Part shown: positions 4,863 through 57,662 of the stretch, piece after piece
Position numbering within the stretch: position 1 is the first letter of the stretch
Layout of the letters: every line of letters starts with the position of its first letter
Assembly (NCBI GenBank): GCA_963726745.1
Contig: CAVSDR010000004.1
Span: forward strand, 160,001 to 224,000
Source: an uncultured Verrucomicrobiae bacterium
GTDB lineage: Bacteria > Verrucomicrobiota > Verrucomicrobiia > Chthoniobacterales > UBA10450
Reading direction: 5' to 3'
Length of the DNA stretch: 64,000 nt
Made by a program: the position numbers and the translations under genes
Notes under the pieces: model-generated
Seen by the model: only the letters and a program-made list of their open reading frames with translations
Told to the model about the DNA's origin: nothing
Databases searched by the model: none

Positions 4863-6716
4863 GTGCGCACGATTCTTCGATTTCTCGCCGCGGTTCTGGC
4901 CTTCGCTCTCTCCGTCCAAGCCGAAACCACGCCGCCCGCGATCTCGCCTTCTCTCATCCTCCCACCCGCGCAACCGTGGAACGGCCAAAGCCGCGCGCTC
5001 GTGGTCCCGAAGGACGATCCGTGGATCACGCCGTCTGAGCGCGGCGACCTGAAGACTTCCCCCTCCTACGACGAAACCGTCGCCTGGCTGCAAAAGCTGG
5101 TCGCGGCCGCGCCGAACCTTTCCCTGCTTTCGCTCGGCAAATCGCCGGAAGGCCGCGACCTTTGGCTCGTCATCGCGGCGAAGGATAAAGTCTCCAAGCC
5201 CGAGGAGCTGCAGCGAAACGGCAAACCGACCGTCTTCGCCCAGGCCGGCATTCACGCCGGCGAGATCGATGGGAAGGATGCTGGCATGATGTTGCTGCGT
5301 GACCTGACCGTGCGCGGCACGAAGAAGGAACTGCTCGAGAATGCGAATTTCCTTTTCGTCCCGATCTTCAACGTCGATGGCCACGAGCGCGCCTCGCGCT
5401 TTAACCGCATCAATCAGCGCGGGCCCGAAGTCATGGGCTGGCGCACCAATTCCCAAAACCTGAATCTGAATCGCGACTACGCGAAGGTCGACACCGCCGA
5501 AATGACCGCGATGATCGGCGCGCTCCACCGCTGGTCGCCGGATCTGTATCTCGACCTCCACGTTACCGACGGCTCCGACCATCAATACGATGTCACCTTT
5601 GGCGGGAACGGCACGGACGCGAACGGCTCTTCGCCCGCAGGCGCGAAATGGCTGAACGAAGTGCTCCTGCCCGGCCTAACGAGTGCATTGCAAGCGCAAG
5701 GGCACATCCCTGGTCCGCTCGATGTCGCGAACCGCGCGGATCCTTACGATCTCACGAAAGGCCTGCGTGGGAGCCCGGGCGAGCCGCGTTACTCCACTGG
5801 TTATGGCGACACGCGGCACCTTCCGACAATCCTGGTCGAGAACCATTCGCTCAAGCCTTACGACCAGCGCGTCCTCGGGATGTATGTCCTGCTTGAGAAT
5901 ACCCTCCGCATCGCAGGCCAGCGTGGTGCCGAGCTGCGCACGGCGATCAAGGCCGATCAGACGCGCAATGCCAAGGCGGTCCCGCTCGTTTTCGGACCGA
6001 ATCCGGAACCGGGCCCGACCCCGATCGCCTATAAGGGAATCGAAGCGCGCGTCGCGCCTTCCGCGATTTCTGGCGCACTCCGGGTGGAATACACCGGCAA
6101 GCCGATCACGGTCACGATCCCGCATCAGTTCGACAACAAAGCGGTCGTCTCGGTCACGCGTCCAAAGGCTTACTGGATCCCGCCAGCCTGGAACGAGGTA
6201 ATCGCCCGCCTTCGCATCCACGGGATCGCGATGGAAACACTGAGCGCCCCGCGCGAGGTCAAAGTCGAGATGTATCGGACCGCGGACGAGAAGTTCGACG
6301 CGAAACCGTTCGAAGGCCACATGCGCGTCCAGGCCGCGACCAAGACCGAGACCCGAACCGAAAAATATCCGGCCGGTTCAGTGCGCGTGCCGGCCGATCA
6401 ACCGCTTGGCGATCTCGTGGTCCAGCTGCTCGAACCCGCCGGACCGGATTCGTTTTTCCAGTGGGGCTTCTTCGATCAAATCTTCCAGCAGACGGAATAC
6501 TTCGAGCCGTATGTGGTCGAGCCGATGGCGGCGCAGATGATGAAAGACGATCCAAAGCTGGCGGCGGAGTTCGAGGCCAAGCTGGCGAGCGACGAAGCCT
6601 TCCGCGCCTCCGCGCAAAGCCGGCTGCGCTGGTTTTACGAGCGCACGCCTTATTTCGATGAGCGCTGGCGCTTGTATCCGGTCGGGCGCGAGATGGCGGG
6701 CAGCGAAACGAAGTAG
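4863..6716 (+). CDS. Secreted M14-family zinc carboxypeptidase
   Basis: Signal peptide; GIHAGEIDG (HxxE), NVDGHER, NLNRD, DLH motifs. Confidence 0.88.
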   Translation: MRTILRFLAAVLAFALSVQAETTPPAISPSLILPPAQPWNGQSRALVVPKDDPWITPSERGDLKTSPSYDETVAWLQKLVAAAPNLSLLSLGKSPEGRDLWLVIAAKDKVSKPEELQRNGKPTVFAQAGIHAGEIDGKDAGMMLLRDLTVRGTKKELLENANFLFVPIFNVDGHERASRFNRINQRGPEVMGWRTNSQNLNLNRDYAKVDTAEMTAMIGALHRWSPDLYLDLHVTDGSDHQYDVTFGGNGTDANGSSPAGAKWLNEVLLPGLTSALQAQGHIPGPLDVANRADPYDLTKGLRGSPGEPRYSTGYGDTRHLPTILVENHSLKPYDQRVLGMYVLLENTLRIAGQRGAELRTAIKADQTRNAKAVPLVFGPNPEPGPTPIAYKGIEARVAPSAISGALRVEYTGKPITVTIPHQFDNKAVVSVTRPKAYWIPPAWNEVIARLRIHGIAMETLSAPREVKVEMYRTADEKFDAKPFEGHMRVQAATKTETRTEKYPAGSVRVPADQPLGDLVVQLLEPAGPDSFFQWGFFDQIFQQTEYFEPYVVEPMAAQMMKDDPKLAAEFEAKLASDEAFRASAQSRLRWFYERTPYFDERWRLYPVGREMAGSETK

Positions 6717-6765
6717 CGCGCTTCGACGTTGAACCGCGGAGGCGTCGCATGGAATCTTCCCGCAC

Positions 6766-7432
6766 ATGACCACGCCCGTCCTGATCGCGCCTTCCATTCT
6801 CGCGGCGGATTTTTCGCGGCTCGGCGAAGAGATCCGCGCGGTCGAAGCGGCCGGCGCGGACTGGATTCACTGCGACATCATGGACGGGCATTTTGTCGAC
6901 AACATCTCGTTCGGTCCGGCCCTCGTGAAGACGGTTCGCGGCCTAACGAAGCTGCCGCTCGATGTCCATCTCATGATCGAGCACGCCGACCATTATCTGC
7001 CGCGCTTCCTCGAGGCCGGCGCGAACTCGATCACGGTCCACGTCGAGCCGGAGGCGCACCATGATGTCGGCAAAACCTTGGCCGCGATTCGCGCCGGCGG
7101 CTGCCGCGCAGGGCTGACGCTCAATCCGGCGACGCCCTTTGAAGCCCTCGAGCCGCATCTCGCTTCGATTGATCTGCTGCTGGTCATGACGGTGCACCCC
7201 GGTTTCGGCGGGCAATCCTTCCGCGAAGATCAGATGGCAAAACTGCAGCGCGCCAGTTGCCTGGCGCGCAGAACACGGAGCGAATTTCGATCTCGAAGTC
7301 GACGGCGGGATTACCGCCGAAACCGCCCCGGTCGCTTTGCAGCACGGCGCCAATGTGCTGGTTGCCGGGACCTCGATCTTTAAAAGCCCGGATTACGCCG
7401 AGGCGATCGCAGCCCTGCGTTCCACTCGTTAG
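6766..7432 (+). CDS. rpe: Ribulose-phosphate 3-epimerase (apparent +1 frameshift near 7257, probably a sequencing error)
   Basis: APSILAADF, HCDIMDGHFVDN, DVHLM, MTVHPGFGGQ. The C-terminus DLEVDGGI...VAGTSIF continues in another frame to TAG at 7430-7432. Confidence 0.93.
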
Positions 7433-9171
7433 GCGACAGCCGGCGCGCTTTCGAGCGAAGTCTCGGCAATGACTTCGTCGTTCTGCGTTACGCGCACCAC
7501 TTCCTCGACCGTCGTCCGCCCCTGGCCCACGCGGCGCCAGCCGTCCTGCCGGAGCGTCTCCATTCCCTGTGAAACTGCTGCCTGTTTTAGCTCGCCGCCG
7601 TCGCGCCGGCCTACAATCAAGCGACGCATCGCTTCGTTGATGATGCAGATTTCGTAGATCGCCATGCGGCCTTGGTAGCCAGTTTGCCGGCAATTATCGC
7701 AGCCCTGCCCGCGCATGAACTGCGTCCCCATTTCATCCACCGGGAAGCTGATCTCGTGCAGGTACTCGCGCGGATACTCGACCAGTTGCGAGCAATCCGG
7801 GCAAACCGTGCGCACGAGCCGCTGCGCCAGAAACGCGCGCACGGTCGAGGCGAGGAGGAATTGCTCGACGCCCATGTCGAGCAGGCGCGTGATCCCGCCG
7901 ACGGCGTCGTTCGTGTGCAGCGTGCTGAACACCAAGTGACCGGTCATGGCCGCGCGGATCGCGATCTCCGCGGTCTCGAAGTCGCGAATTTCGCCGACCA
8001 TGATCACGTTCGGATCCTGGCGGAGAATGTGGCGCAAGCCCTTGGCAAAGGTCAGGTCGATCTCCGGTTTGACGTCAATTTGGGAAACGCCGGGCAGCCG
8101 ATATTCCACCGGTTCCTCGATCGTGATGATCCGGCGCTGGACCGAGTTGATGCTCGAGAGGAAACAGTAAAGCGAAGTCGATTTGCCCGAGCCGGTCGGC
8201 CCGGTCACGAGCACGATGCCGTTCGGCTGCTCGAGGAGCGATTGGACGATGCGCGAATGCTTCGCGCTCAAGTCGAGCCGCTCGAAACCGAAAGTCGCGT
8301 TCTGCTGGTCGCGGCTCAGCAGACGCAGCGAGATCGATTCGCCGTTGACCGTCGGAATGGTCGAGACGCGCACGTCGATGTTCGCGCCGCTCGATTGCAA
8401 ATTGATCCGGCCATCCTGCGGCAGGCGGCGCTCGGCGATGTCCATGTGCGCCATGACTTTCAGGCGTGAGATGATGGCCGATTGCAGGAGGCGCAACTGC
8501 GGCGGGACCGCGACCTCATGCAGGATGCCATCGATGCGATAGCGAATCCGCAGGTCGCCCTCGAGCGGCTCCACGTGGATGTCGGTTGCGCGTTCCACGA
8601 TCGCTTCGCGGATGATCTGGTTGACGAACTTGACCACCGACGCCTCGGGATCGTCGGCGTTCAGATCCATCGCCAGCTCGGTGTCCTGCAGGCCTTCGAA
8701 CGAGCGGTTGGTCTTCAGGATTTCGTCGAACGTTTCCGCACCGACGCCGTAAACCGTTTTCATCACGCGCAAGATCTGCACGCGTGAGACCAGGACCCAC
8801 TCGACCGGCCGCTTCAGGAGCTGCGAAGCGAGCTGGCGGCCGACGGAGTTGAAGAGATCGTAGGTCGCGAGCACGACCGCGTTTTCCTTCACCTCCAGCG
8901 GCAGGATGTGGTGCTGGAAGACGAAGCGACTGGGTAAAAGCGAGAGCGTCTGGCGATCGATGCTCTTGGCGTCGATCGAGCGCATTGGAACGTCGAAGTA
9001 GTTCCCGATCGCCTGGAGGAAACGCGTTTCGTCGACTTTTCCGGAGTCGAGCACCTGCGCGGTCCAGGAGCCGCCGTTCAGGTTCGACGCCAGCGCGGCC
9101 GCTTCCTCATGCGAGGACACGCCGGCCGCGAGCAGCAGCTCGATTAATGACTGCCCGACGGCGGCGTTCAT
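7429..9171 (-). CDS. gspE: Type II secretion / type IV pilus assembly ATPase (GspE/PilB family)
   Basis: ATDIHVEP, RYRIDG, ERRLPQDG, Walker A GPTGSGKST, LRQDPNVIMVGEIRD, CxxC...CxxC. Confidence 0.92.
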   Translation of the reverse strand: MNAAVGQSLIELLLAAGVSSHEEAAALASNLNGGSWTAQVLDSGKVDETRFLQAIGNYFDVPMRSIDAKSIDRQTLSLLPSRFVFQHHILPLEVKENAVVLATYDLFNSVGRQLASQLLKRPVEWVLVSRVQILRVMKTVYGVGAETFDEILKTNRSFEGLQDTELAMDLNADDPEASVVKFVNQIIREAIVERATDIHVEPLEGDLRIRYRIDGILHEVAVPPQLRLLQSAIISRLKVMAHMDIAERRLPQDGRINLQSSGANIDVRVSTIPTVNGESISLRLLSRDQQNATFGFERLDLSAKHSRIVQSLLEQPNGIVLVTGPTGSGKSTSLYCFLSSINSVQRRIITIEEPVEYRLPGVSQIDVKPEIDLTFAKGLRHILRQDPNVIMVGEIRDFETAEIAIRAAMTGHLVFSTLHTNDAVGGITRLLDMGVEQFLLASTVRAFLAQRLVRTVCPDCSQLVEYPREYLHEISFPVDEMGTQFMRGQGCDNCRQTGYQGRMAIYEICIINEAMRRLIVGRRDGGELKQAAVSQGMETLRQDGWRRVGQGRTTVEEVVRVTQNDEVIAETSLESAPAVA

Positions 9172-11522
9172 TTATAATCCCGCACCGGCGGGAGATCAGG
9201 CGGGGTCATGAACTTGTCGTCTGCGCCTTCGGCCTTCGGGCAATCCGGGCAATCGTCCTGGTCGAGCTCGGGGCCGAAGTGCGTTTTGTCCTCGTGCTTC
9301 GCGCGCAGGCGCACGAGGTCGAGCTTGGTCAAGGTCACCTCCGGCCGCATCAAGATGATCAGCTCCTGCCGCGTCTTGTTGTTCGTCGTGTTCCGGAATA
9401 ATCCGCCCACCAGCGGGATCCGGCTGAGCACCGGAATGCCGGCCTGGTTGCGGTCCTTCCGGTCCATGATCAACCCGCCAAGGATGATCGTGGAACAGTT
9501 CGGCGCGGTCACCGTCGTCTTGATGTAGCGCGTCGCGATCGTGGGGATCTGGTTGTTATCGATCGTGGTGCTGCCGGCGATGCTGTCGACCTTCTGCAGG
9601 ATGTCGAGCGTCACTTCCTTCTCGGAGTTAATCAGCGGCACGACCTCGAGCTGGAGCGCGATCTTCTTGAATTGGATATTCGATTGCTGCGCCAGGCCGG
9701 TGTTGATCAACCCGCCGCCACTAGACGACGAGATGGTGTTCACCGGGACCGGCACTTCCTGGCCGGAAGCGATAATCGCCTTCTTGTTGTTGCTCGTGAA
9801 AACCGTCGGCCGCGAGATCGTGCGGAAGCGCCCGGTGGAATCGAGCGCGCGCACGATCGCCGTCAGGCCATTGCCGGTGGAGAGAAAAATGTTCGTCCCC
9901 GTCGCCGCCGCGGTCGCGAGCTGGGTAAATCCGGTCAGGCTCGCGGGATTAACCCCGGCGATTCCCGTGTTGCCCGCCCCGCCGCCGATCCCGCCGTCGC
10001 CGCCGCGGAAGGAGGCGAACTTCGCGAAGTAATCGATCCCAAGTTGCTCGTTATTATTCAGCGTGAGCTCGCCGATGACCGTGCTCAGCGCGACCTGCGG
10101 CGCGCTCACGTCCATTTCGTTCAAGAGCTTTTGCACCTTCACCACGACCTCGCGATTACCCAGGATGATGATCGTATTCGCACGCTGGTCGGCGATGATC
10201 TTGGCGTTGCCGATCGTGACCGCTTTCGGCGTGGTGTCGACTGCCTGGGTCGAGAGTTCCTCCGAGAAATTCTGCGAGCCGCTGCTCCCACCGGAACCGA
10301 AGTCGCCACCGCTGGTGTTCGTGTTCCGGTTGCGATTCTGGTTGGGCACCTGCGGGTTCTGGCCGGGATTCGCGCCGCCGGCTTCGCCCGCGCCGCCGGC
10401 GTTGTTGCCACCCGGCTCGGTCAGCGCCTGCACGATCACCGGCAGCACGTCCGCCGCGGAGATGTAACGCAGCGGCCGCGTGACCGGTTTGGCAAAGTCG
10501 ACATTGGCGTCGAACTCCGCGATCAAGCGGCGGACAAACGGCATGTTCACCGGGCGCGTGATCACGTGGATGCGGTTCGTGCGCACGTCCGGCGCGAGCT
10601 TGATCTTGCCGATAATCACTGAGTCTTCCGAGAGGCCGGTGAGCGATCCGAACTCGTTATTCTCCGCCACGATCTGCGGCTGCGGCTGGCCCGGAGGAGG
10701 CTGCACTCCGGGACGCACCGCGCGGATATTTCCCGGAGCCCCGGGCACGCCCGGCTGGCCTTGCCCCTTCTCAAAGATCTCTTTCAGCATGTCCACCACC
10801 TTGCCGGCATCGGCCCGCTCGAGCTTGATGAACTCGCTGACTACTTCCGCCGGCGGGATGTCGACCTGGTTGATGATGTTCGCGAGGCTGCGAATGACGC
10901 TCGAGTTTTCGGTCACGAGAATGCTGGAGGATTTCGGGAGCGCGAGGAAGGAGGTGTAGGGCTGCGGCGGCGAAAGATATTGCCCGAGGACCTGCTGGAG
11001 CTCGGTCGGGTCGGCGTAGCGGAGCTTGAAGAGGAAACTGATCACCTGCTCGCCGAGCGGAATCTGCGATTCATCGGAAAGGATCGGGACGCCGGCGGTG
11101 CGCGGATTTTTCCCGGTGCCGATGACCTTGACCACGTCGTCTTCCGCCGGGACTAACGAGTAGCCGTTCATCAAGAGATTGATCTGAATGATGCGGATCG
11201 CTTCCTCGCGTGGGATTGGCTTGGCGATGAAAATGTTCACCTTTCCCTGCACGAAATTATCCATCACCAGTTTCTTCCCGGTGAGCTGCTCGTAAAGGCG
11301 GAGGACGTCGGTCACGTCGCTGTTTGGATATTGCAGCGTGACCATGTCGGGCGCGCCCGGAGGCGGCGTGGTGTTGCCGAGGGGCGCGGCGCCGGCCGAA
11401 CCAGCGGGACCGGCGGCGGCCACGTTTGGCAGCGGCTCTGGAACTTGAGCGGAAAGCAGCGAGGCGCCGAGCAGCGAGAGACACGCTCCGAAGGCGAAAG
11501 TGCTGGCTAAATTTTTACGCAT
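9168..11522 (-). CDS. gspD: Secretin, GspD-like
   Basis: Signal peptide, repeated N-domains (LRYADP, ADQRANTIII), secretin C-domain (GGLI...GIPVLSRIPLVGGLF...ELIILMRP). Confidence 0.9.
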   Translation of the reverse strand: MRKNLASTFAFGACLSLLGASLLSAQVPEPLPNVAAAGPAGSAGAAPLGNTTPPPGAPDMVTLQYPNSDVTDVLRLYEQLTGKKLVMDNFVQGKVNIFIAKPIPREEAIRIIQINLLMNGYSLVPAEDDVVKVIGTGKNPRTAGVPILSDESQIPLGEQVISFLFKLRYADPTELQQVLGQYLSPPQPYTSFLALPKSSSILVTENSSVIRSLANIINQVDIPPAEVVSEFIKLERADAGKVVDMLKEIFEKGQGQPGVPGAPGNIRAVRPGVQPPPGQPQPQIVAENNEFGSLTGLSEDSVIIGKIKLAPDVRTNRIHVITRPVNMPFVRRLIAEFDANVDFAKPVTRPLRYISAADVLPVIVQALTEPGGNNAGGAGEAGGANPGQNPQVPNQNRNRNTNTSGGDFGSGGSSGSQNFSEELSTQAVDTTPKAVTIGNAKIIADQRANTIIILGNREVVVKVQKLLNEMDVSAPQVALSTVIGELTLNNNEQLGIDYFAKFASFRGGDGGIGGGAGNTGIAGVNPASLTGFTQLATAAATGTNIFLSTGNGLTAIVRALDSTGRFRTISRPTVFTSNNKKAIIASGQEVPVPVNTISSSSGGGLINTGLAQQSNIQFKKIALQLEVVPLINSEKEVTLDILQKVDSIAGSTTIDNNQIPTIATRYIKTTVTAPNCSTIILGGLIMDRKDRNQAGIPVLSRIPLVGGLFRNTTNNKTRQELIILMRPEVTLTKLDLVRLRAKHEDKTHFGPELDQDDCPDCPKAEGADDKFMTPPDLPPVRDYK

Positions 11523-11655
11523 AAAGGGATCGACGTTGGGGCAGGACGAAGACGGTATCGGAAAAATGAATCCGGCGGAAGCGCAAGAAGTGTAGCAGCC
11601 TCGCCCGCAAATCGCTATCGCGCCTTTCGCCGGGAAAATTGCGCGTTGGCGGACG

Positions 11656-13054
11656 TCACCGCTTCGAGCGGAGCGCGGTCAGGAGCCGCTCGTGGATGCC
11701 GTCGAAGCCGCCGTTACTGAAGACGACGACGACGTCATTCCGGCTCGAGCAACGGGAGGAGCTGCTCCACGATGTGCGCGGCGTCCTTGACGTAGAAGGC
11801 CGGGCGACCGCTCTCGGCGATCGTTTGCACCACGGCCTCGGGATTGAGCCGGTCGCCCTCCGGGAGCTGATCAAGCCGCGCGACTTGCGCCAGGAAAACG
11901 CCATCGGCCAGCATCAAAGCGTCGGGTAATTGCTGCTGGAAAACGGCGCGCCGGGTGGTGTTCGAGCGCGGCTCGAAGATCGCCCAGAGCCGCTGCCCGA
12001 CGTAACGCCGGCGCAGGCCGGTGAGCGTCTGCGCGATCGCCGTTGGGTGATGCCCAAAGTCGTCGATCACGGTCACGCCGCCGACTTCGCCGCGCACTTC
12101 CTGCCGGCGCGCGATCCCGGTAAACGTCGCCAGCCCTTCGCGAATCTTCTCCAGCGGCGCGCCGTAGAAACGCGCCGCGCTGATCGCCATGGCGGCGTTG
12201 CGCACATTGAATTCGCCGACCAGCGGGAGCTGAAAGCGCTCCTCGCCTAACGAGAACTCGGAGCCCTCCGCGCTGTAGCCGATCTCGGTGATCCGCTGCG
12301 CGCAATTCTCCGAAAGCCCGATCTCGACGATCGGCGCGACCGCCTCCCGGCCGACTTCCACGCAATTCGGATCATCGCCGTTCAAAAGGACCATCCCGTT
12401 CTGCGGCACGATCCGCAGGAGGTGGCGAAAGCTGCGCTTGATTTGCTCGAGGTCGTCGAAGATGTCCGCGTGATCGAACTCGATGTTGTTCACGATCACC
12501 AGCTCCGGGAGGTAGTGGACAAACTTCGAGCGCTTGTCGAAAAAAGCGGTGTCGTATTCGTCGCCCTCGAGCACGAAATGCTTCGAGTCGTTAAAGAGCG
12601 CGCCCTGCCCGAGATTGCGCGGGATGCCGCCGATCATGAAGCTCGGGTCGAAGCCGGCCACGCGCAGGAGCCAGGTGAGGAGCGCGGTCGTGGTCGTCTT
12701 TCCGTGCGTCCCGGTGACCACGAGATTGTGCCGCCCGCGGAGGAACTCGTTCCGCAAAACCTCCGGGAGCGAGACGTAGTAGCGCTTCTCGTTCAAGGTC
12801 GCTTCGACCTCCGGGTTGCCGCGCGTCATCGCGTTCCCGATCACGATCACCGAGTCGTTAGCCGGCAAGTTCTCCGCGCGGAAACCTTCGCGCAGGATGA
12901 CGCCGCGGCTCTCGAGGAAAGTCGACATCGGCGGGTAGACGTTTTCGTCCGAGCCGGTCACGCCGTAGCCGCGTTCGCGCAATGCCGCCGCGACCGAGCC
13001 CATGGCCGTTCCGCAGACTCCGATGAAATGAAAACTCTTTTTGGCGCCGGTCAC
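11656..13054 (-). CDS. mpl: Murein peptide ligase Mpl (apparent +1 frameshift near 11740)
   Basis: HFIGVCGTAMG, GTHGKTTTT, EGDEYDTAFFDKRSKF, DDFGHHPTAI, FEPRSNT. The tail DVVVVFSNGGFDGIH is in another frame ending at 11656. Confidence 0.9.
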
Positions 13055-13108
13055 GCCGCGTTCTTTAAATGCACGCAGGCCATTTGGCGAATGCCGAGAA
13101 GTGGTCGG

Positions 13109-47329: not shown

Positions 47330-47392
47330 GACGGCTGCTAATTGATCGGAGAACCCGAGGCAAACAAGTGGTTTTGGCGGCGGCCCCGCCCA

Positions 47393-47409
47393 TGGCACAG
47401 ACGCTGCTT
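47393..47409 (+). promoter_or_regulatory. Putative sigma-54 (-24/-12) promoter
   Basis: TGGCACAGACGCTGCTT: GG at 47394-95 and GC at 47406-07, 10 nt apart, close to the consensus TGGCAC-N5-TTGC. Confidence 0.55.
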
Positions 47410-47421
47410 TTAGACAGCAGC

Positions 47422-47637: not shown

Positions 47638-47650
47638 GAGCCGCAAAACA

Positions 47651-47680
47651 AAACGGCTCCGGATCGCTCCGGAGCCATTT
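47651..47680. terminator. Hairpin between convergent genes, probable terminator
   Basis: GGCTCCGGA-TCGC-TCCGGAGCC flanked by an A-tract on the left and TTT on the right. Confidence 0.7.
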
Positions 47681-47703
47681 GCGTGGTTAGGCGTTTCGCG
47701 CGC

Positions 47704-49482: not shown

Positions 49483-49608
49483 AGGTTGGCTCCAGAAAGA
49501 AGTTGGAATTATAGACCTCGCCACGAGGTCGCTTATTCACTCCAGCTTTGATTCGGCGCTGGTTGCGCGCCTGCGCGTGAAGCGAGCCAATCCCGCGGGA
49601 TCGCTCGC

Positions 49609-51162
49609 CTAACGATCGCGCAAAACGACAAACGAGCGCGTGCGATGCCGGCAAATCGACACCAGGTAAGGCCCGTTCGGATCGAGCGCGCTGATGATTT
49701 TACGGTAATCGGCCACGCTGGTCACCGGCTGTTGGTTGACCTCCTCGATCACGTCGCCTTTGCGCAACTCCCCGCTGGCGTCGTCCAGGCCGGTCACCAC
49801 CACACCATGCACGTTTGCCGGGAGATCGAGCTGGCGCGCCAGCTCCGCCGTCAACTCGGCTACCTGCACGCCTGCGAGCGGCGCTTCATCCTGCAGGTCG
49901 CTCTCGTCCTCGTTCGCGCCCGGCGCAGGATTCGGGCTCAGCCCACCGGGCGGAAGCAGTGGCTGGCGTTGCGCTGGCTGCGGCGAACGCGGCGCCACTC
50001 CGGCGGTCTGGTAGTTGACCGGCTGCTCCTTGATCACGGTGGAAACAGTCAGCGCTTTGCCAGCGCGCAGCAGTTCCACCTCGACCTTTTTATTCAGCTC
50101 CTTTTGCGAGACCACATTGCGCAACTCCGCGAAGCTCCGGACCTCGCGCCCGTCGAATTTTCGGATGACATCGCCGGGTTGGATCTGGGCCTCGGCCGCG
50201 GGTGAGTTTGGGACTACGTCGTCCACCACCACACCCTGCGCCTCGCGCTCTTCGCCCGGAGCCGGCGTCCGCATTTGAATTCCGAGATAGCCCCGGATGA
50301 TCCGCCCATTCTTGAGCAGACTCTCGAGAGCGTTCTTGGCTGTGTTCGACGGGATGGCAAAGCCAATCCCCTGCGAGCCACCACTGCGCGAGATGATTGC
50401 GGTGTTAATGCCGATGATCTCGCCCTGGAGGTTGATCAACGGCCCGCCGCTGTTCCCCGGATTGATCGCTGCGTTCGTTTGCAGGAAATCACCAAAGCCA
50501 TCGATGCGATTCGGCCGGCCTTTCGAGCTAATGATGCCGTCTGTGACCGTCTCCTCGAAGCCGAAGGGATTCCCCACCGCGAGCACGAAATCGCCCGCTT
50601 GCACCTCGTCGGAATCGCCAAACTTCAGCGGATGCACTCCGGGATCGTCAATCTTCAGCACGGCCAGATCGGCGATCGAATCCGCGCCGATCAAGCGCGC
50701 CTTCTTCGTGCGGCCATCGCTGAGCTGCACCTCGATTTCGTCCACCTGGTCGACCACGTGATTATTCGTCACGATGTGGCCCTCGCTGGAGACAATCACC
50801 CCCGAGCCAAGGGAATTTTGCACCGTCTCCTGCTCGCTGCGGTTCCGGAATTGGCGTGAGTTTCGATAGAAAAATTCAAACGGATCCATCCCCGAGCGGC
50901 GCACCGGAATTTTCTTTGAGGTCTTGATGCTGACAACCGAAGGCAGAACGGCCGAGACCAGCGCACGCCGCTCGCGGTCGAGCGCCTGCAAGGTCCCGAT
51001 CTTTCCGGGCTCGATGCTCGGGGTGCTCGCGAGGGTGTATTTTTCCGGCTGCGCCCGTCCGGCGAGGCTTAGCCCGCCATGTTTCATGCGGTAGTCGTAA
51101 AGCGCAGAAATGCCGGCGCTCAGGAGCGCGACGAAGAGAAGAAATTTAAGGAGATTTTTCAT
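49609..51162 (-). CDS. htrA: HtrA/DegP-family serine protease with two PDZ domains
   Basis: Start MKNLLK; GSGVI, TNNHV, DLAVLK, AAINPGNSGGPL, GYLG. Confidence 0.94.
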   Translation of the reverse strand: MKNLLKFLLFVALLSAGISALYDYRMKHGGLSLAGRAQPEKYTLASTPSIEPGKIGTLQALDRERRALVSAVLPSVVSIKTSKKIPVRRSGMDPFEFFYRNSRQFRNRSEQETVQNSLGSGVIVSSEGHIVTNNHVVDQVDEIEVQLSDGRTKKARLIGADSIADLAVLKIDDPGVHPLKFGDSDEVQAGDFVLAVGNPFGFEETVTDGIISSKGRPNRIDGFGDFLQTNAAINPGNSGGPLINLQGEIIGINTAIISRSGGSQGIGFAIPSNTAKNALESLLKNGRIIRGYLGIQMRTPAPGEEREAQGVVVDDVVPNSPAAEAQIQPGDVIRKFDGREVRSFAELRNVVSQKELNKKVEVELLRAGKALTVSTVIKEQPVNYQTAGVAPRSPQPAQRQPLLPPGGLSPNPAPGANEDESDLQDEAPLAGVQVAELTAELARQLDLPANVHGVVVTGLDDASGELRKGDVIEEVNQQPVTSVADYRKIISALDPNGPYLVSICRHRTRSFVVLRDR

Positions 51163-53252
51163 TAACTGACGTTGGAAAAGCTGCGTCCCTGTTCTTCGAC
51201 AATCAATCGGCGGAAACGTTGATTCTCCGGCGCCTCGAGAAATGGGTCCCATTCCATGATCGCGGTGGCCGCGGCGCGCGCGCGCAACATCAACTCGCGA
51301 TCGGTCTGCAAATTTCCCAGCTGCAATCCCGGTAATCCGCTTTGCGCCGTCCCCAGGAGGTCGCCCGGCCCGCGCTGTTCCCAATCCGCTTCCGCGACCT
51401 CGAAGCCGTCGCGCGTGCGCTCCAGCACAGAAAGTTTAGCCAGCGTCTCGGGCGACTTCTCATCGCTCAAGAGAACGCAATAAGACTTGTGCTCGCCGCG
51501 GCCGATGCGCCCGCGCAATTGGTGCAACTGCGCCAGGCCGAAACGCTCCGCATTTTCAATCAGCATGATGGTCGCGTTCGGCACATCCACCCCAACTTCC
51601 ACCACCGTGGTGCTGACTAAAACGCTCGTCTCCCCGCGGCGAAATGCCTCCATCGTCGCCTGCTTTTCCGGCGCCGGGATGCGGCCATGCAGCAACCCGC
51701 AACGAAACGGTCGCAGCCGCTCCTGCCATTGCGCGAACTCCGCCGCCGCCGCCTTCACGTCGAGCTTCTCGCTTTCTTCGATCAGCGGATAGATCACATA
51801 AGCCTGCCGGCCCGCTTCCAGTTCTTTGCGCAGGAAAGCGAGCACCTCGCCCAGCTTCGAGCTCTCGCGCAGCGCGGTTAAAATCTTCCCACGGTTAGAC
51901 GGCATCTCGTCGATCGTGGAAACGTCGAGATCGCCATAGATCGTCATCGTCAAGGTGCGCGGGATCGGCGTGGCCGTCATCACGAGCACGTCCGGCGCCG
52001 GCTCCCGACTCGTTAGCCGCGCCCGCTGAGAGACGCCAAACTTGTGCTGCTCATCGATCACCACCAACCCCAGGCGCGCAAACTCCACCGAATCGTAAAG
52101 CAACGCGTGCGTGCCGATGATGATCTGCGGCTGGTCGGCGCCGACAGCCGATGCCAGATCGCCCGTTTCGCCGCCGAACAACGGCAGCGGCGCGCTCTCT
52201 TCCTTGCGGGTTCCTGTGCGCAGCGCAAGACGGAGGCCGAGCGGCTCGAGCCAACGTCGGAGGACGGCGTAATGCTGCTCGGCGAGAATTTGCGTGGGCG
52301 CCATGAGCGCGGCCTGCGAGCCCGCCTCCACCGCGAGGAGCATGGCCGCGGTCGCGACGACGGTTTTGCCCGAGCCGACGTCGCCCTGCAGCAGCCGGTT
52401 CATCGGCTTGCCGGTGGCGAGGTCGCGCCGCACTTCGTCTAGCACCCGGACCTGCGCAGCAGTGAGTTGAAACGGCAGCGCGGCCAGGAAGCGCTCGAGA
52501 ATTTTGCCAGCACTTTGATGCGCCATGCCCAGCCGTTGCGCGGTGGTCGCGCGACGGGCGGCGATCGCCATTTGCAGCGCAAAGAACTCCGAGAAAACCA
52601 GATGCTCGCGCGCAGCTTTGAGCGAATCCCAGTCGTCCGGAAAATGAATTTGCCCCAAGGCCACGCGTCGCGAACCGGCCGCGTGGTTCCGCGGCAGAAG
52701 CGTCTCCACCTCGCCTTCATCGAGGTGCTCGAGCGCGTGAAAAACCAGCCCGCGGAAAACCCGCTGCGAGAGCCCTTCGGTTGCCGGATAGATCGGCGTG
52801 ATCCGCCCGAAATGGATCGAGATCTCCTCGTCGCTCTCGATCACCTCGAACTCCGGATGCTCCATGCAGAGCCGCTGCCCGCGCAACCGCGGCTTCCCGA
52901 AAACCACCAGCCGCTGGCCGGTGGCGATCATCTTTTGCACGTAGTGCAGGTTGAACCAACGCAGGACCAGCGGCTGGCTGAGCGCATTGGCCTCGTCCTC
53001 CTGCAGCGTCGCCTCGAAGATCTTCTTCCAGCCGCCGAAACGCCGCACCGAGGTCTTCGTCACTTCGCCGCAAATGCAGACCGGCTTCTCGCTCTCGTCG
53101 CGCGGGAAGCCGGGAAACTGCGTCCGGTCCTCGTGCCGCCGCGGGAAATGCGTCAGCAAATTCTCCACCGAGATAATTCCGAGCCGCTTCAACGGCGCGA
53201 GCCGCGGGCGCGGCACCCAGTCGCAGTTCTCGAGCAGGTCGGAGAGTTGCAT
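51162..53252 (-). CDS. recG: ATP-dependent DNA helicase RecG
   Basis: LLQGDVGSGKT, DEQHKFG, TATPIPRT, AERFGLAQLHQLRGR. Confidence 0.97.
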   Translation of the reverse strand: MQLSDLLENCDWVPRPRLAPLKRLGIISVENLLTHFPRRHEDRTQFPGFPRDESEKPVCICGEVTKTSVRRFGGWKKIFEATLQEDEANALSQPLVLRWFNLHYVQKMIATGQRLVVFGKPRLRGQRLCMEHPEFEVIESDEEISIHFGRITPIYPATEGLSQRVFRGLVFHALEHLDEGEVETLLPRNHAAGSRRVALGQIHFPDDWDSLKAAREHLVFSEFFALQMAIAARRATTAQRLGMAHQSAGKILERFLAALPFQLTAAQVRVLDEVRRDLATGKPMNRLLQGDVGSGKTVVATAAMLLAVEAGSQAALMAPTQILAEQHYAVLRRWLEPLGLRLALRTGTRKEESAPLPLFGGETGDLASAVGADQPQIIIGTHALLYDSVEFARLGLVVIDEQHKFGVSQRARLTSREPAPDVLVMTATPIPRTLTMTIYGDLDVSTIDEMPSNRGKILTALRESSKLGEVLAFLRKELEAGRQAYVIYPLIEESEKLDVKAAAAEFAQWQERLRPFRCGLLHGRIPAPEKQATMEAFRRGETSVLVSTTVVEVGVDVPNATIMLIENAERFGLAQLHQLRGRIGRGEHKSYCVLLSDEKSPETLAKLSVLERTRDGFEVAEADWEQRGPGDLLGTAQSGLPGLQLGNLQTDRELMLRARAAATAIMEWDPFLEAPENQRFRRLIVEEQGRSFSNVS

Positions 53253-53255
53253 TCG

Positions 53256-54957
53256 TTAGACCGGCGCGGCCGCGCGCACCGCTTCCACGTGCATTTGCAG
53301 GCGCTTTTCGCCGAGATACTCGTCGATCTCCAAGCGGTAGGCCACGTCCCACGGCGGCGGCGGGAGCGGCGTGCTCGCAGCGCCGAAGAAAATGCCGCGC
53401 GCGCGATGATTCCGCTGGCGCAGGCGCAGCTGGAGATGCTTCTCCTTGACCACGCGCGGCGTCTCTGTCGGCTCGACCGCGCGCGAGAAAAACATCGGCT
53501 GCGGGTTGCCCGCGCCAAACGGCTCCAGCGCTTCGTGCCAGCGCAGGAGGTCGCTGTTTAATTCCGCGAAGGAGAGCTCGTGATCGAGCAGAAGCCGCGG
53601 CTGGAGCGCTTCCTCGCTGAGGAGCGCCCGGGCCGCGGCGCGGAAGTCGTCGGCAAATTTCTCGAACTCCGCCTCCCGAATGGTCAAGCCGGCCGCCATC
53701 TCGTGCCCGCCAAATTTCTCCAGTCGTGCGGCGCAACGCCCGAGCGCCTCGACCAACGAAAGCCCTTCGATGCTCCGCCCGCTCCCCTTTCCCACGCCGT
53801 TCGCGTCGAAGCCGACCAGGATGGTGGGCCGATGGAATTTCCGCGCGAGCCGCGAGGCGACGATCCCGAGCACGCCTGGGTGCCAATCACGCGCACCGAG
53901 CACGATCGCGGCGTCGCGCGCCGGATCGAACTCCTGGGCCACCCGCTCCTCGGCCGCCGCCGCGATCGCCTTCTCCACGCCCTGGCGCTCGCGGTTTTGC
54001 CCATCGAGGAACGCGGAAAGCTCCGTGGCCTCGGCATCGTCTTCCGTGAGCAAAAGCCGGAGCGCTTTCTCCGCGGTGGCGAGCCGGCCGGCGGCATTGA
54101 GCCGCGGCCCGAGACGAAAGCCAATGTCCGCCGCGCACGGCTGCGCGCGCACGCCCGCGACTTCGATCAAGCGGCGCACGCCGAGCCGCGAACTGCGCGC
54201 AATCTGCCGGAGACCATGTTGCACAAAGCACCCGATTCTCGCGCTCCAGCGGAACGATATCGGCCACGGTGCCAAGTGCCACCAGGTCGAGGTGCGCACG
54301 CAGATCGAAGCCGGAGACCGGACGCGTTTTCAGGAGCGCGTGGCAGAGCTTGAAGACCACGCCGACGCTGCAGAGGTAGCGCAGGGCGCAATCCTCCACC
54401 GCCTTCGGATTAACCAGCGCGACGCAAAGAGGCAGCGCGCTCTTTGGTTCGTGGTGATCGAGCACGATCACTTCCACCCCGCGGGTGCGCAGGAGCGCGA
54501 TCTCATCGAGCGAGGACGTCCCGCAATCGACCGCGACCAGGAGCTGCGGTTGATGCTCCGCGCAGCAGCGCTCCACGCTTTCGCGGCTAAGGCCGTAGCC
54601 TTCCTCCATCCGCAGCGGCAGGAAGAGCGCCGGCGTGGCGCCGTAAGCGCGGAGCATGGTCGAGAGCAGCGCGAGCGAAGTGACGCCATCGACATCGTAG
54701 TCGCCGAAAAGAACGATGCGCTCCCCGCGATCGATCGCCTCGAGGATCCGCGCGACCGCGAGCTGCATTTGCGGCAAGAGAAAGGGATCGCCTAACGAAC
54801 GCAGACGCGGCGCGAGAAAAGCGTTCACTTCGTCGGCGCAGGCAAAACCTTTGCGCCGCAGAAGCGCGGCGATGCAGGGCAAGCCGCAGAGTTCGGCCCA
54901 GGGAATGGCCCCAAGCTCCTCCGCTTTTGCCTCGTGAATGACCCAGCGCCGCTCCAT
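53256..54957 (-). CDS. recJ: ssDNA exonuclease RecJ (apparent +1 frameshift near 54226)
   Basis: GDYDVDG, VDCG, DHH, GTVAD in 53887..54957; PRLNAAGR, GSGRS, GGH.MAAG, PFG.GNP in 53256..54299. Confidence 0.94.
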
Positions 54958-54963
54958 CGCGCG

Positions 54964-55824
54964 CTACTGTAGCATCTGCGCGAGCGTCTGTGCGTTGAAG
55001 GGTGCGTGGACCTTGGCGTCGTTATCGAAATAGAGAAAAACCTCGCGCGCCCACCGCCGGATTCGCCGGGCCCAGGCGCGCAGTTCCGCATCCGAGTATC
55101 CGCTCACATAGAGCTGCTCCGCGCCATGCAGACGCACGTAGACGAAGTCCGCGGTTACCTCCTCGGCATAGGGAAATTTGCCGGCGGTATCGGCGACCAC
55201 GAAGGCGATCCCGAACTCGCGGAGAAGCGCGAAGAACTCCGGCACAAGAAAGGTCGGGTGCCGGATCTCAACTGCGTAGCGCAGCGGCCGGGAGCGATCG
55301 GTCTCCGCATGGACGCCGTGCTTCAGCTTGTCGTCGTGCAAGCGCGCGAGCTGCGCGGCTTCGGCGGTGGTTTTAGGCAGCAACTTGAAGAACTCGCGGA
55401 AGCGCGCGGGATTCCAGCCGAAGTTCGGCGGGAACTGCCAGAGGATGGGCCCGAGTTTCTCGCGCAGCGCGAGCACGCCCGAGCCGAAGAAATTAGCCAG
55501 CGGGATCTCGACCTCGCGCAGCTTCTTCATGTGGGTGATGAAGCGCGCGCCCTTGACCGCGAAGACGAATCCGGGCGGCGTCTGCGCATACCAGCTCGCG
55601 TAGCTCGACGGTCGTTGGAGCGAGTAAAAGGAGCCGTTAATCTCGATGCTGTTGAACTGGCGGCTGGCGTATTCCAGCTCGCGCTTTTGCGTGAGGTCTT
55701 GCGGGTAAAAGACGCCGCGCCACGGCGCGTAAGTCCAGCCGGAGATGCCGATGCGCGGTGGCTTCTTCAGACGAGCGGCAGCGGGCCGTCGTTTCCCGGA
55801 GGGAGCAGTGCGTGGCGTTGGCAT
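54964..55824 (-). CDS. DUF72 (YecE/YunF-like) protein
   Basis: IGISGW.Y..W...FYP, EINGSFY, LWQFPP, VEIRH, YVRLHG, YFDND. Start uncertain; may overlap the end of mqnA. Confidence 0.9.
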   Translation of the reverse strand: MPTPRTAPSGKRRPAAARLKKPPRIGISGWTYAPWRGVFYPQDLTQKRELEYASRQFNSIEINGSFYSLQRPSSYASWYAQTPPGFVFAVKGARFITHMKKLREVEIPLANFFGSGVLALREKLGPILWQFPPNFGWNPARFREFFKLLPKTTAEAAQLARLHDDKLKHGVHAETDRSRPLRYAVEIRHPTFLVPEFFALLREFGIAFVVADTAGKFPYAEEVTADFVYVRLHGAEQLYVSGYSDAELRAWARRIRRWAREVFLYFDNDAKVHAPFNAQTLAQMLQ

Positions 55825-56523
55825 AACTGGCGAAACTTGAGCAAGCCTTCCTGCTCGCGCGGGCCGAAGCCGAAGCGCAGGCAATCGTTGAAGTAGAATC
55901 GCAGAAAGTCGGGCGAGTAGTTTTCCTCCGCCGCGATCAATTGCTCGAGGCCTGCGAGATTCGCATCGCGCCGCGCGCGCAGCTGCTCGGCGATCGCCTT
56001 GCCTTCGCCCACCTCGGGGCGCACCAGCCAAAGCGCGAAGACGAACGGCAGGCCGGTCATTTCCTTCCACCATTGCCCGAGGTCGCGGTAGTGGAATCCG
56101 TCGCCATGCTCCTCGCGGAAGCGGATCGCCTGGTCGCCAATCAGGAGGCGCGCGGAGTCGTTAGCCGACGAGATCAGGCGCGGCGAAAGACCGGACTCGG
56201 CGAGGAGGCAGCGGAGGAGATTGACCGAGGTCAACGAAGCCGGGTCGAGCGCGATCTCGCCGGATTTCCTCGAGCGGCGCGCGGTGCGCCAGGACCACGC
56301 TGTAAACCGGGCCATCGGAACCCACGGCGACGCCTTCGACGATCCGATAGATCGGATGCTGCAGCAGCTCGAAGCTGGAAACGAAAGCGATGTCTAATTC
56401 TCCCGCAGCCAGCCGGCGGCAAAGGGCCGAGGGCGTGTCGAATTCAACCGGACCGGGCCAGCCGGCAATGAGCGGTCGGGAGTTGAGATATTGGACGCAG
56501 CCAATCCGCCGGTCGGCGCTCAC
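55767..56523 (-). CDS. mqnA: Chorismate dehydratase, futalosine pathway (apparent +1 frameshift near 56263)
   Basis: IG.VQYLN..PL and G.V.SV, then S.TS..L, LLIGD.A, DLG..W...TGLPFVFALW. Confidence 0.9.
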
Positions 56524-57662
56524 GCGCAGACCAGCTCGGCCTCGGCCGGGGGCTGCGCAGCGCGGGCCTTACCTAGGTGATGGTAATAGCTGTCGCGCTG
56601 CATCGGTTCGCGGCCAGCTTCGCGAATGGCGTTCTCGAGCATCTCGACGGTTAATTCCTGGGGCGTCTTCGCGCCCGCCATGTGAAAGATTTTCTCTTCC
56701 ATGATCGTGCCGTGGAGATCGTCGACCCCGTAGCCTAACGAGACCTGCGCCAGCGGCAGGCCCATGGAAACCCAGTAAGCGGTGAGGTGGTCGAAATTAT
56801 CCAGGTAGATGCGGCTGACCGCGAGATTGCGCAGTTGCTCGACGCCGGTGGCGCGCGGGATATGCGCGAGGATTTCGGTCTGCGGCTCGAAGGCGAATGG
56901 AACAAAACCAGTGAAGCCGCCGGTCTCGTCCTGCAGCTCGCGGAGTTGCCGCAAGTGATCGACCCGCTGCGCAAGCGTTTCGATATGGCCGTAAAGCATG
57001 GTCGCGGTGCTGCGCCCGCCCATTTGGTGCCAGGTGCGATGAACCTCCAGCCATTCCTCGGCGCTTTCCTTTCCGCGGCAGATTTCATCGCGCACCGCGG
57101 CGTCGAAAATCTCCGCGCCGCCGCCGGTGAGCGCGCCCAGGCCGGCATCGCGCAGCGTCGCCAAAGTGTCGGCAATCGAAAGCTTGAAGACGCGCTCGGC
57201 CAGATGGCGAATCTCGATCGCGGTGAACGCTTTCAGGATCAATCCGGGATCGAGCGCGCGCAGGCGCGTGAGCAATTCCAGATACCACTCCTTCTTCAAC
57301 GACGGATGCAGCCCGCCGACCATGTGCACTTCGGTAATGCCGAGTCGGAGAGCGTCCTGCACGGCGACCACAATCTCATCGATCGCGAGCTCGAAGGCGT
57401 GCGGGTCGCGCTTGCGCGCGGCGAAGGCGCAGAATTGGCAGGAGAGGATGCAGACGTTCGAATAATTGATGTAGCGATTGAGAATGTAGGTCGCGAAGTT
57501 GCCGTTCTTCCGTTCGCGGACGGCACTTGCCATGATCCCCAGGGCATTCAAGTCTTGCGCCTGGTAGAGCGCCAGCGCATCGGCCTCGGTGATGCGCTCG
57601 GCCGCCTCCACCTTCTCGGCGATGCGTCGGAGTGCGGGCGGAATGAGGGAAAAATTCATCAA
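56520..57662 (-). CDS. mqnE: Aminodeoxyfutalosine synthase (radical SAM)
   Basis: CILSCQFC, GGLHP, KAFTAIEI, GGGAEIF, TMLYGHIE, AYW, EKIFHMAGA. Confidence 0.9.
   Translation of the reverse strand: MMNFSLIPPALRRIAEKVEAAERITEADALALYQAQDLNALGIMASAVRERKNGNFATYILNRYINYSNVCILSCQFCAFAARKRDPHAFELAIDEIVVAVQDALRLGITEVHMVGGLHPSLKKEWYLELLTRLRALDPGLILKAFTAIEIRHLAERVFKLSIADTLATLRDAGLGALTGGGAEIFDAAVRDEICRGKESAEEWLEVHRTWHQMGGRSTATMLYGHIETLAQRVDHLRQLRELQDETGGFTGFVPFAFEPQTEILAHIPRATGVEQLRNLAVSRIYLDNFDHLTAYWVSMGLPLAQVSLGYGVDDLHGTIMEEKIFHMAGAKTPQELTVEMLENAIREAGREPMQRDSYYHHLGKARAAQPPAEAELVCA

Follow-up and report, generated by a model that had tools for sequence, protein, structure and literature searches.

A dispersed, hyper-abundant DNA word across an uncultured soil family of Verrucomicrobia

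Dispersed words in a 64-kb window

The window, a 64-kb stretch of a Chthoniobacterales genome (Verrucomicrobiota) from a family of uncultured soil Verrucomicrobia, carries two short words scattered over both strands. Word A, (G)(C)CTAACGA(G), occupies positions 5674..56741. The original prediction counted 38 exact copies of CTAACGA/TCGTTAG, 23 on the plus and 15 on the minus strand, between 5676 and 56741, and this count is correct, as are the G two bases 5' of the 7-mer in 35 of the 38 copies (the form GNCTAACGA), the choice of GCCTAACGAG as the most frequent form (n = 11) and all seven positions given for one-mismatch copies. Dinucleotide shuffling predicts 0.82 copies of GNCTAACGA in the window (100 shuffles; maximum 4). 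The enrichment of the 7-mer stands, while the hand estimate of ~4 expected copies falls to 2.6 under an order-2 Markov model and the GC content, given as ~65%, is 63.3%. Word B, GYYGNCTAWWW (full profile SAWSYYGYYGGCTAWWWY), has 35 dispersed copies at 4807..63359 (23 plus, 12 minus) and has the core GNCTA in common with A. It had been overlooked, as had a word C in the family, the identity of A with an integron R-box form and the presence of A in another phylum.

According to our own gene calls, 26 of the 38 copies of A lie inside genes, nine form stop codons and three are intergenic. At 15852..15860 (plus strand) A supplies the TAA stop of rplT, encoding ribosomal protein L20, immediately 5' of pheS. 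Four copies lie within pheT (17777..19050; 17777 minus, 18205 plus, 18740 minus, 19042 plus), where the encoded residues are Ser-Leu-Gly or Asn-Glu; two of these copies can be aligned widely, and they are common to one of 11 and none of 10 alignments with relatives. In the gene for the carbamoyl-phosphate synthase small chain, the copy at 20061..20069 (plus), read as Cys-Leu-Thr, occurs at the same place in six of 16 such alignments. This gene ends at a further copy (20809..20815, plus) that provides both stops of a convergent pair, TAA for the small chain gene and TAG for a glycosyltransferase gene, an arrangement found 38 times across the genome. Copies of A rarely break the short-range self-avoidance described below; one such case is a pair separated by 11 bp where two genes meet (40086..40105, plus). 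A minus-strand trypsin/PDZ protease gene takes its TAG stop from the copy at 49607..49615 (plus), and the GTCTAACGA form at 53253..53261 (minus) is the TAA stop of a RecJ-like gene, directly ahead of the recG start.

Placement, spacing and spread of word A

CTAACGA occurs 2,025 times in the 3.41-Mb genome against 136 expected (order-2 Markov), and GCCTAACGAG 820 times against 4.4. The original prediction held that enrichment confined to the window, or counts matching a codon-preserving null, would speak against it; all seven contigs are enriched (0.45–0.70 copies of CTAACGA per kb), and in coding DNA GNCTAACGA reaches 1,285 copies against 45–66 (about 52) in 10 amino-acid-preserving codon shuffles, an excess of ~25-fold. 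Coding DNA is not depleted (0.45 vs 0.50 copies per kb in non-coding DNA), and sequence conservation around A does not reach beyond ~20 bp; its flanks are graded and vary from genus to genus. Occurrences of A use the rare codons TTA and CTA. Of the 2,806 TTA codons, 1,377 (about half) fall within A- or B-type words, as do 500 of the 1,823 TAA/TAG stops.

A arises by substitution at whatever sites the protein can accommodate, on both strands. The proteome contains 749 Ser-Leu-Gly tripeptides (455 expected) and 243 Pro-Asn-Glu (98 expected), of which A spells 59% and 62%, respectively; the corresponding ratios are 1.82 and 5.1 in the loci of high-A relatives and 0.89 and 0.52 in those of low-A relatives. 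In 293 orthologues, 24 of 324 aligned A sites lie near a gap, and residue identity at A sites is 57% compared with 71% overall. Uptake sequences are likewise reported to arise by substitution at poorly conserved residues (PMC2817400). The conservation of sites among relatives that had been proposed as a check is limited, since 36 of the 324 sites are shared and most are not.

A second copy is disfavoured within about 200–300 bp. Within single genes, 25 A-A pairs closer than 200 bp were found against 75.5 expected, compared with 231 A-B pairs (220 expected), which show no avoidance, and 54 pairs of a control word (55 expected). The density of A pairs is 0.3 below 100 bp and ~1 beyond 300 bp, so that spacing is more even than random. 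Inverted terminator pairs are not formed, the two inverted arrangements closer than 200 bp numbering 13 and 15 against 48 expected for each. Hairpin toxicity is ruled out as the cause of the spacing because all pair orientations are equally depleted (0.27–0.37).

A accumulates in DNA of long residence but is sparse in accessory islands, low-GC3 genes and islands serving as the proxy for recently acquired DNA. Low-GC3 genes carry 0.13–0.22 copies per kb vs 0.42–0.51, and the long gaps inspected are mostly polysaccharide and secreted-protein islands. A-free gaps of 8–25 kb occur, among them rpoC and most of rpoB. Of the depletion anticipated for islands and prophages, only that of islands was borne out: the one prophage examined, Mu-like, has 21 copies of GCCTAACGA in 26 kb, against 11.5 at the host rate. 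Temperate Pasteurellaceae phages build up USS (PMC6776037). Viral scans of 59 loci gave one host-like phage (L245) and five loci (L252, L253, L255, L257 and L322) that by appearance are attC-type arrays or short repeats; the others hold few copies. A terminase search matched three of 60 genomes, and two of these matches, which sat among host-like genes, were left out.

In the family, GCCTAACGA exceeds its control in 146 of 150 genomes, with up to 4,336 copies, and reaches at most 18 copies in each of 219 other genomes of the phylum. Density ranges several-hundred-fold, from the word-less genome G069, with 13 copies, to G093, the densest. The same word occurs in the Gemmatimonadaceae, another phylum. 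The source genome carries word B and another clade carries word C; A and C coexist in one genome, up to two words occur per genome, and neither B nor C avoids A. A quick ComEC tree with long outgroup branches was used only to place C and G069. The profiles of B and C match with a score of 2.79 (shuffled 95th percentile 2.65) in a test made after the fact, and that of A and C does not exceed the shuffled null; the reading of A, B and C as one bipartite site is suggestive only. As the original prediction had supposed, the literature searched contains no description of word A.

Competence genes and the integron R box

The search for competence genes suggested in the original prediction gave a mixed picture. 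The source genome has ComEC, DprA, ComM, PilB/PilC and pilins, whereas no ComP domain exceeded the cut-off in five genomes and the ComEA-like gene stops, in this assembly, before its HhH domain. ComEC is non-discriminating because it is present in 73 of 75 genomes, outgroups included, and ComEC, DprA, ComM and AddAB are all too broadly distributed to be the A-specific reader. AddAB-like genes occur in the source genome, most of the family and all 14 outgroups, in a search so patchy (it matched the source genome once and missed it once) that its blanks were left unused. No pilin group compared across five genomes follows A, and word-less G069 has the pilin cassettes of the source genome. The DUF7305 tip-pilin domain, for which no match to a solved structure was found, was rejected as reader, being present in none of six genomes of two high-A genera. 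A ComEA-like gene with HhH is present in 20 of 22 panel genomes with at least 300 copies of A per Mb vs 19 of 37 below that density, an association that weakens at genus level (6/7 vs 6/13), and no ComEA-like gene was found in G065, which carries 852 copies. An SNase-HhH ComEA-like protein, whose nearest clusters are all from Verrucomicrobiota, does not track A and has a counterpart in the outgroups. An orphan N6/N4 methyltransferase is kept at ~70% identity in five of five genomes, and was rejected as reader in view of its presence in G069. XerC is unsupported as the reader of B: B matches a dif candidate arm plus core at 12 of 14 positions in a comparison made after the fact, but its anchor rejects the dif-arm base (100 vs 1,009), and the dif-like arms of relatives show no variation that follows B or C.

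The reverse complement of A, CTCGTTAG, is the R box of attI (12 of 17 intI loci) and attC sites in the family, and CTCGTTAGGC is one of four common R-box endings there. The source genome contains an array of 14 attC and three single attC, the only copies of A that match the attC signature. The last two bases of 113 attC ends are AT (37), GC (31), AC (24) and GT (21). Among 2,009 copies genome-wide they include GC (1,305), CC (240), GG (134), TC (123), AC (79) and GT (51), and never AT. The flanks of genomic copies differ from those of attC, and partner boxes are scarcer than expected within 300 bp. No IntI was detected in either the source genome or G093, and it is present in word-less G069 and 11 of 14 outgroups; A density does not differ with IntI (median 131 vs 110 per Mb, p = 0.48). 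The absence of the commonest attC ending and the independence of density from the integrase therefore reject A as a cassette scar.

Interpretation and meaning

Among known systems, the USS of Pasteurellaceae (PMC2817400, PMC7811141, PMC6776037) resemble A in their 9-bp non-palindromic core and graded flanks, their density of 0.5–1.5 per kb, mostly genic and in both orientations, their roughly doubled tripeptides at poorly conserved residues, their rarity in accessory DNA and their presence in temperate phage. A differs in sequence and phylum, in its undepleted coding DNA, in its lack of inverted pairs (for USS, 17% have a neighbouring USS within 30 bp) and in the occurrence of up to two words per genome. 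PpdA/ComN is the predicted USS receptor (PMC12616744); the search of the ComP domain and pilin groups found none for A, whose proposed uptake role is read from sequence. The DUS of Neisseriaceae (PMC2397512, PMC3630211), read by ComP, likewise number thousands of copies, have lineage-specific flank variants and are more evenly spaced than random. They are mostly intergenic terminator pairs, whereas A is mostly genic, and their dialects, built on a common core, replace one another, whereas A and C are different words found together in one genome; the ComP domain stayed below the cut-off in the five genomes. Integron att sites, including attG (bioRxiv 10.1101/2022.09.11.507474; PMC12614218), have the R-box ending but differ from the single genomic boxes, which have neither partner box nor hairpin, never end in AT, tolerate non-RY endings and are distributed independently of IntI. 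The cyanobacterial HIP1 (PMC5861425) is similarly hyper-abundant in and between genes, with nucleoid and repair-ratchet models both proposed and its function unsettled; it is a palindromic octamer with known methylation sites, whereas A is non-palindromic and is not tied to a methyltransferase here. REP and MITE elements, unlike A, have a long conserved body and are intergenic.

The signature of DUS and USS is matched in most respects, and the best reading is therefore that A may be a self word at the level of DNA, maintained by an uptake-biased molecular drive that acts through recombination, as has been proposed for DUS and USS; to this reading we give about an even chance. The tag proposed in the original prediction thus fits mostly by its genomic signature and falls short in its receptor, its inverted terminator pairs and the HhH end of ComEA. 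In such a system, a sequence-specific protein would favour word-bearing fragments in natural transformation, whether during uptake itself or in the protection or recombination that immediately follows. An allele gaining A would be transmitted more often unless the same short fragment already had a copy, and such a copy would set the 200–300 bp avoidance range; two USS within 100 bp give no added uptake (PMC7811141). Since neither B nor C avoids A, the reading of these two words would be independent of that of A or would happen at a different time. Neisserial conversion fragments of 1.1–1.7 kb (PMC2397512) exceed the avoidance range and count against the model, which also does not predict the same word in two phyla or its identity with an integron box. 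In a bolder version, which we regard as rather unlikely, soil Verrucomicrobia and Gemmatimonadaceae would have a DNA receptor that favours the crossover box of integrons and so brings in environmental gene cassettes by preference; its bias would have written the word into chromosomes and prophages and reshaped codon, stop-codon and amino-acid use, while the family gained and lost independent readers (B, C), up to two self words per genome.

Alternatively, an intracellular nucleoid, repair or recombinase-like protein might bind A on resident DNA, with sites kept by selection or by biased gene conversion from one chromosome copy to another, and one site serving ~250 bp. This possibility, which we hold tentatively and as the less probable, fits the spacing and distribution data equally well and agrees with the dense prophage, the resemblance of A to a tyrosine-recombinase arm (the R box), the after-the-fact match of B to dif, and the nucleoid role argued for HIP1 (PMC5861425). 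Against it, gaps spanning rpoC and most of rpoB are tolerated, the family's density range extends down to 13 copies in G069, the anchor of B and the invariant dif-like arms of relatives disagree, and the candidate protein was not found. Alternatively, the integron integrase might write A, cassette insertion with imprecise loss, or abortive strand exchange, turning near-matches into R boxes. IntI integrates cassettes across the genome with no strand bias, and its excision may be off-site (bioRxiv 10.1101/2022.09.11.507474); the R-box identity, the attC sites of the source genome, the Gemmatimonadaceae word and the depletion of some near-matches (GCCCAACGA, 7 vs 44 expected) also favour it. Nevertheless, the missing AT ending largely refutes it, flanks, IntI distribution and density point the same way, as does avoidance equal in all orientations, and we consider it improbable.

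Repair directed by methylation, the ratchet put forward for HIP1, could convert near-matches to A, consistent with several core one-off variants at or below the null and with the conserved methyltransferase. The occurrence of that enzyme in G069, the non-palindromic word with its graded, genus-dependent flanks and the avoidance between copies 100–250 bp apart, which it leaves unexplained, make it quite improbable. The strand polarity that would mean Chi or KOPS, acting through AddAB or FtsK, is absent: counts on the G-rich strand are 682 vs 705 for A and 597 vs 602 for B, compared with 195 vs 54 for the positive control, KOPS-like GGGNAGGG, in the same windows. Such a signal is very improbable; AddAB-like genes, present in most of the family, are also universal in the outgroups. 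Stop codons are formed by 287 of the 2,025 CTAACGA copies, and convergent junctions touch A twice as often as other junctions, as a copied repeat (REP, MITE or transposon footprint) or promoter/terminator element might do. However, conservation ends within the short site, 1,437 copies are genic in all four open frames, intergenic density is similar whether the flanking genes are convergent (0.59 per kb), divergent (0.44) or co-directional (0.53), and rare codons are used; we practically discount this group, a codon artefact included.

If the uptake reading is wrong, the words would still point to a chromosome-wide DNA-reading system. Unlike the classic cases, the family includes losses of the word (G069), densities that differ several-hundred-fold and words that coexist, and the word recurs in a second phylum; taken together, these features should make the reader findable by comparison. 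The words already shape the genome through its TTA codons and TAA/TAG stops, and they can be used to link phages and contigs with their hosts. Only for Neisseriaceae and Pasteurellaceae is a sequence bias in DNA uptake established (PMC2817400); the present case, if true, would be the third and would mean that uncultured soil Verrucomicrobia exchange DNA selectively, in short pieces.

Abundance of word A and its relation to genes

The window holds 38 exact copies of CTAACGA, 23 on the + strand and 15 on the - strand, precisely the number and strand division of the original prediction; 35 of them read GNCTAACGA, for which shuffled sequence yields 0.82. The predicted enrichment extends outside the window. 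Over the whole source genome (G000; 3.41 Mb in 7 contigs, the window being C4:160001-224000), CTAACGA occurs 2,025 times against an order-2 expectation of 136 and GCCTAACGAG 820 times against 4.4, with copies spread evenly across every contig. The genome-wide profile of this word, designated word A, centres on a sharp CTAACGA core, preceded by G at -2 in 87% of copies and by C at -1 in 75%, and followed by G at +7 in 64%; the outer flanks are weak. PheS sequences with 74-92% identity to that of G000 belong to Chthoniobacterales and Spartobacteria records; one, at 76%, is labelled Candidatus Udaeobacter, and the family of G000, taken to be GTDB UBA10450, is probably the one holding that genus.

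With our own gene calls (3,153 genes), 1,437 of the 2,025 copies lie within genes, where they occupy all four open frames, 287 form stop codons and 301 are intergenic. Density is similar in coding and intergenic DNA, and no spacer class is preferred among the intergenic spacers of G000. Synonymous shuffling of coding DNA leaves 45-66 copies against 1,285 observed, so the predicted over-representation outlasts a codon-preserving null, and word A is a DNA-level signal. Words of the A type and of a second type, B, hold 1,377 of 2,806 TTA and 358 of 1,278 CTA codons, which word A uses and which are the rarest leucine codons, together with 292 of 998 TAG and 208 of 825 TAA stops; the tripeptides Ser-Leu-Gly (749 observed, 455 expected) and Pro-Asn-Glu (243 observed, 98 expected) are in excess. 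Stop usage in G000 is even for a genome of 64% GC (TAG 1,111, TGA 1,098, TAA 944), and TAA and TAG are likewise frequent in the word-less relative G069 (61 of 118 stops), so that the words account for only part of it.

In 293 genes aligned with relatives, 36 of 324 pairwise word A sites are common to both genomes and 24 of 324 lie near a gap, while residue identity is 57% at the sites and 71% overall. Where the tripeptide is conserved, both genomes spell the word in 27 of 60 comparisons with high-A relatives, against about 23 if spelling were independent (the pairs themselves are not mutually independent), and low-A relatives spell it in 0 of 13. These spelling and orthologue comparisons indicate that permissive positions tend to fill, by substitution, rather than that fixed positions are retained.

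Distribution in the family and arrangement along the chromosome

Every one of the 24 other genus members has more copies of GNCTAACGA (191-2,986) than of the reversed control; among 16 genomes from other families of the order, none does. Across 150 family genomes (30 genera), GCCTAACGA exceeds the control in 146 and reaches at least 1,000 copies in 35, with a maximum of 4,336 in 3.2 Mb; G069 has 13 copies, and low counts include attC arrays. None of 219 other Verrucomicrobiota genomes has more than 18. Flanks vary by genus, the densest genome, G093, having no G at +7 and T-rich upstream bases. The nested position of G069, on a long branch of a quick ComEC tree, suggests that it lost word A. 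Unpublished genomes are counted in the genus-level GNCTAACGA and word B comparisons (G001, G008), the 150-genome GCCTAACGA count (G001, G055, G165) and the AddAB search (G055); no claim depends solely on them.

Word B (profile SAWSYYGYYGGCTAWWWY; about 2,740 sites in G000 by mixture fit) was counted as GYYGNCTAWWW, with 1,570 copies in G000 against 152 for the control; elsewhere a clear excess over control was seen in just 2 of the 24 remaining members of the genus and in 0 of 26 further genomes. Word C (AAGATCGACAW) has 17 copies in G000; of 62 further genomes of the family, 15 have at least 400, with a maximum of 4,514 in 2.9 Mb, and 15 genomes outside the family have at most 13. The sampled C-rich genera form one clade in the ComEC tree. 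Pooled loci of one genus, g21 (154 kb), contain few copies of A, B or C and are weakly enriched in GGGATCCC and GGGATGAC, which may represent a fourth word or a repeat. Elsewhere, L100 (G065:C1:731600-751599) carries REP-like inverted pairs of a 20-bp element with GCGCCTCTACA, three pairs in 6 kb.

Copies of word A avoid one another in all three orientations, with a pair density of 0.3 below 100 bp, 0.43 at 100-200 bp, 0.66-0.78 at 200-300 bp and about 1 farther apart. Within single genes, 25 A-A pairs lie less than 200 bp apart where 75.5 are expected (control, 54 vs 55). B-B avoidance is weak (56 vs 74 expected), and none is seen for A-B pairs (231 vs 220) or, in small numbers, for A-C pairs in 60 kb of the genome G072; saturation within 200-300 bp is specific to each word. 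Word A also accumulates with residence time. Genes with GC3 below 0.75 carry 0.13-0.22 copies per kb against 0.42-0.51, and 38 gaps exceed 8 kb; most of the 16 whose gene content was listed are, by sequence reading, polysaccharide clusters, large secreted proteins or toxin-antitoxin islands, and one spans rpoB-rpoC-rplL.

A 26-kb contig of the genome G130, with terminase, portal and holin matches and a gene order that reads as Mu-like, has 21 copies of GCCTAACGA where the host rate predicts 11.5 (p = 0.007). L245, a viral locus, has an identical sequence, leaving a single phage case. The N-terminal motifs of a protein in the G130 prophage (L328:4820-5578) resemble those of a Dam-type DNA methyltransferase. 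Five other phage contigs (L252, L253, L255, L257, L322) have clustered repeats starting with word A, in several cases between small genes and in L322 matching the family attC end; these may be phage-borne cassette arrays.

The integron crossover box

At C6:736573-744900, G000 has 14 attC sites of 119-127 bp, closely related and arrayed with small cassette genes; three single attC sites lie near C3:633252, C4:150193 and C4:151065. The array sites fold into long hairpins, and no integron integrase (IntI) was found beside the array or elsewhere in the G000 assembly. The attC crossover end, CTCG-TTAG plus two bases, is word A reversed, and the same box (the R box) closes attI at 12 of the 17 intI loci of the family, as it does 113 attC sites. 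Among these 17 loci (L342-L358), attI regions follow a conserved plan in which a box is repeated upstream of the crossover; four of the loci have no attI before intI, and three of these have several attC sites on its other side. An intergenic dif-like site (L363, C5:120899-120926), the sole exact match in G000 to the dif search pattern, lies at the cumulative GC-skew maximum of its contig.

The match still calls for explanation because a second phylum has the identical word. Of at least 119 matching metagenome loci, 80, chosen for two word copies each, were fetched, and 20 of these were selected as GC-rich and at most slightly similar to G000; the 20 (116 kb) hold 122 copies of CGTTAGGC against 6.6 expected, 40 being present by selection. 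Five loci were tested: proteins from three group with Gemmatimonadaceae-named records, and a fourth locus points to Gemmatimonadota.

Competence genes and candidate mechanisms

The competence set of G000 includes an open ComEC frame, DprA, ComM and PilB/PilC, with three PilT/PilU-like ATPases recognized by similarity and sequence reading and about 16 pilin-like genes. In the secreted ComEA-like protein of the family, a nuclease-fold (SNase) domain is joined to HhH. Its G000 gene (C4:17242-17907) ends before the HhH domain, a frameshifted piece of which sits on a separate contig (C2:230100-230300); split genes are frequent in this assembly, so the truncation may be either genuine or an error. 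Of 59 genomes surveyed, 22 have at least 300 A per Mb, and the HhH form is present in 20 of these and in 19 of the other 37 (p = 0.002, treating kin as independent); counted by genus, the figures are 6 of 7 vs 6 of 13. With a full-length query, the protein was not found in four of five genomes tested for absence, and the fifth had a remnant. No receptor candidate among ComP domains, the DUF7305 tip pilin and pilin groups follows the word in the sets of five or six genomes compared.

Paralogous three-gene minor-pilin cassettes at C6:623578-626133 and C3:584422-586936 (L154, L155) end in a DUF7305 protein of 480-490 aa, and one, encoded on the opposite strand, is flanked by prs and the L25 gene and lies 3 kb from dprA. 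The window itself encodes type II secretion-like secretin and ATPase genes (7429-11522), separate from the C2 pseudopilin operon, and a bacterial type IB topoisomerase (25188-26252). An orphan N6/N4 DNA methyltransferase (C3:981251-982042) has counterparts of about 70% identity in 5/5 family genomes.

Biased uptake, as an explanation of the word, we hold to be evenly balanced between true and false. A putative reader would give word-bearing DNA a transmission advantage, which would vanish once the same fragment already bore a copy. This account is favored because it is the sole described process known to have the entire signature, including the protein-like preference profile of the word. The same statistics fit an intracellular protein that binds the word, a possible but distinctly less probable reading.

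Other accounts fare worse. That integrase scarring wrote the word is improbable: the commonest attC ending, AT, found in 37 of 113 attC sites, occurs in 0 of 2,009 genome-wide copies, among which the CC, GG and TC endings, not attC-like, are common, and copying from integron sites was rejected on this evidence. Further results argue against IntI as the reader: of 65 other genomes of the family, 48 have it, as do 11 of 14 outgroups and the word-less G069, it was not found in G093, and word density does not differ between genomes with and without it (48 vs 18 genomes, p = 0.48). A methylation ratchet, which fails a test in this analysis, is marginally less probable still. Least credible is a polar signal: the two-strand character originally noted holds genome-wide, with 682 vs 705 copies relative to the G-rich strand, while the control GGGNAGGG, a KOPS-like word, is polar (195 vs 54). 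The leftover probability belongs to mechanisms outside these.

The original prediction of a DUS/USS-like tag stands in part. DUS/USS and word A are alike in six tested features and differ in two, the terminator pairs with coding depletion and the ComP-type receptor of DUS/USS; because of these two, and because that class is defined by an uptake assay, word A is not filed as a member of it. A literature search for the lineage or the words, in which subscription journals were thinly covered, returned nothing relevant. Word A matches the integron crossover box and is, on the evidence of these genomes, a real family-wide genomic signal of what appears to be the uptake-sequence type.
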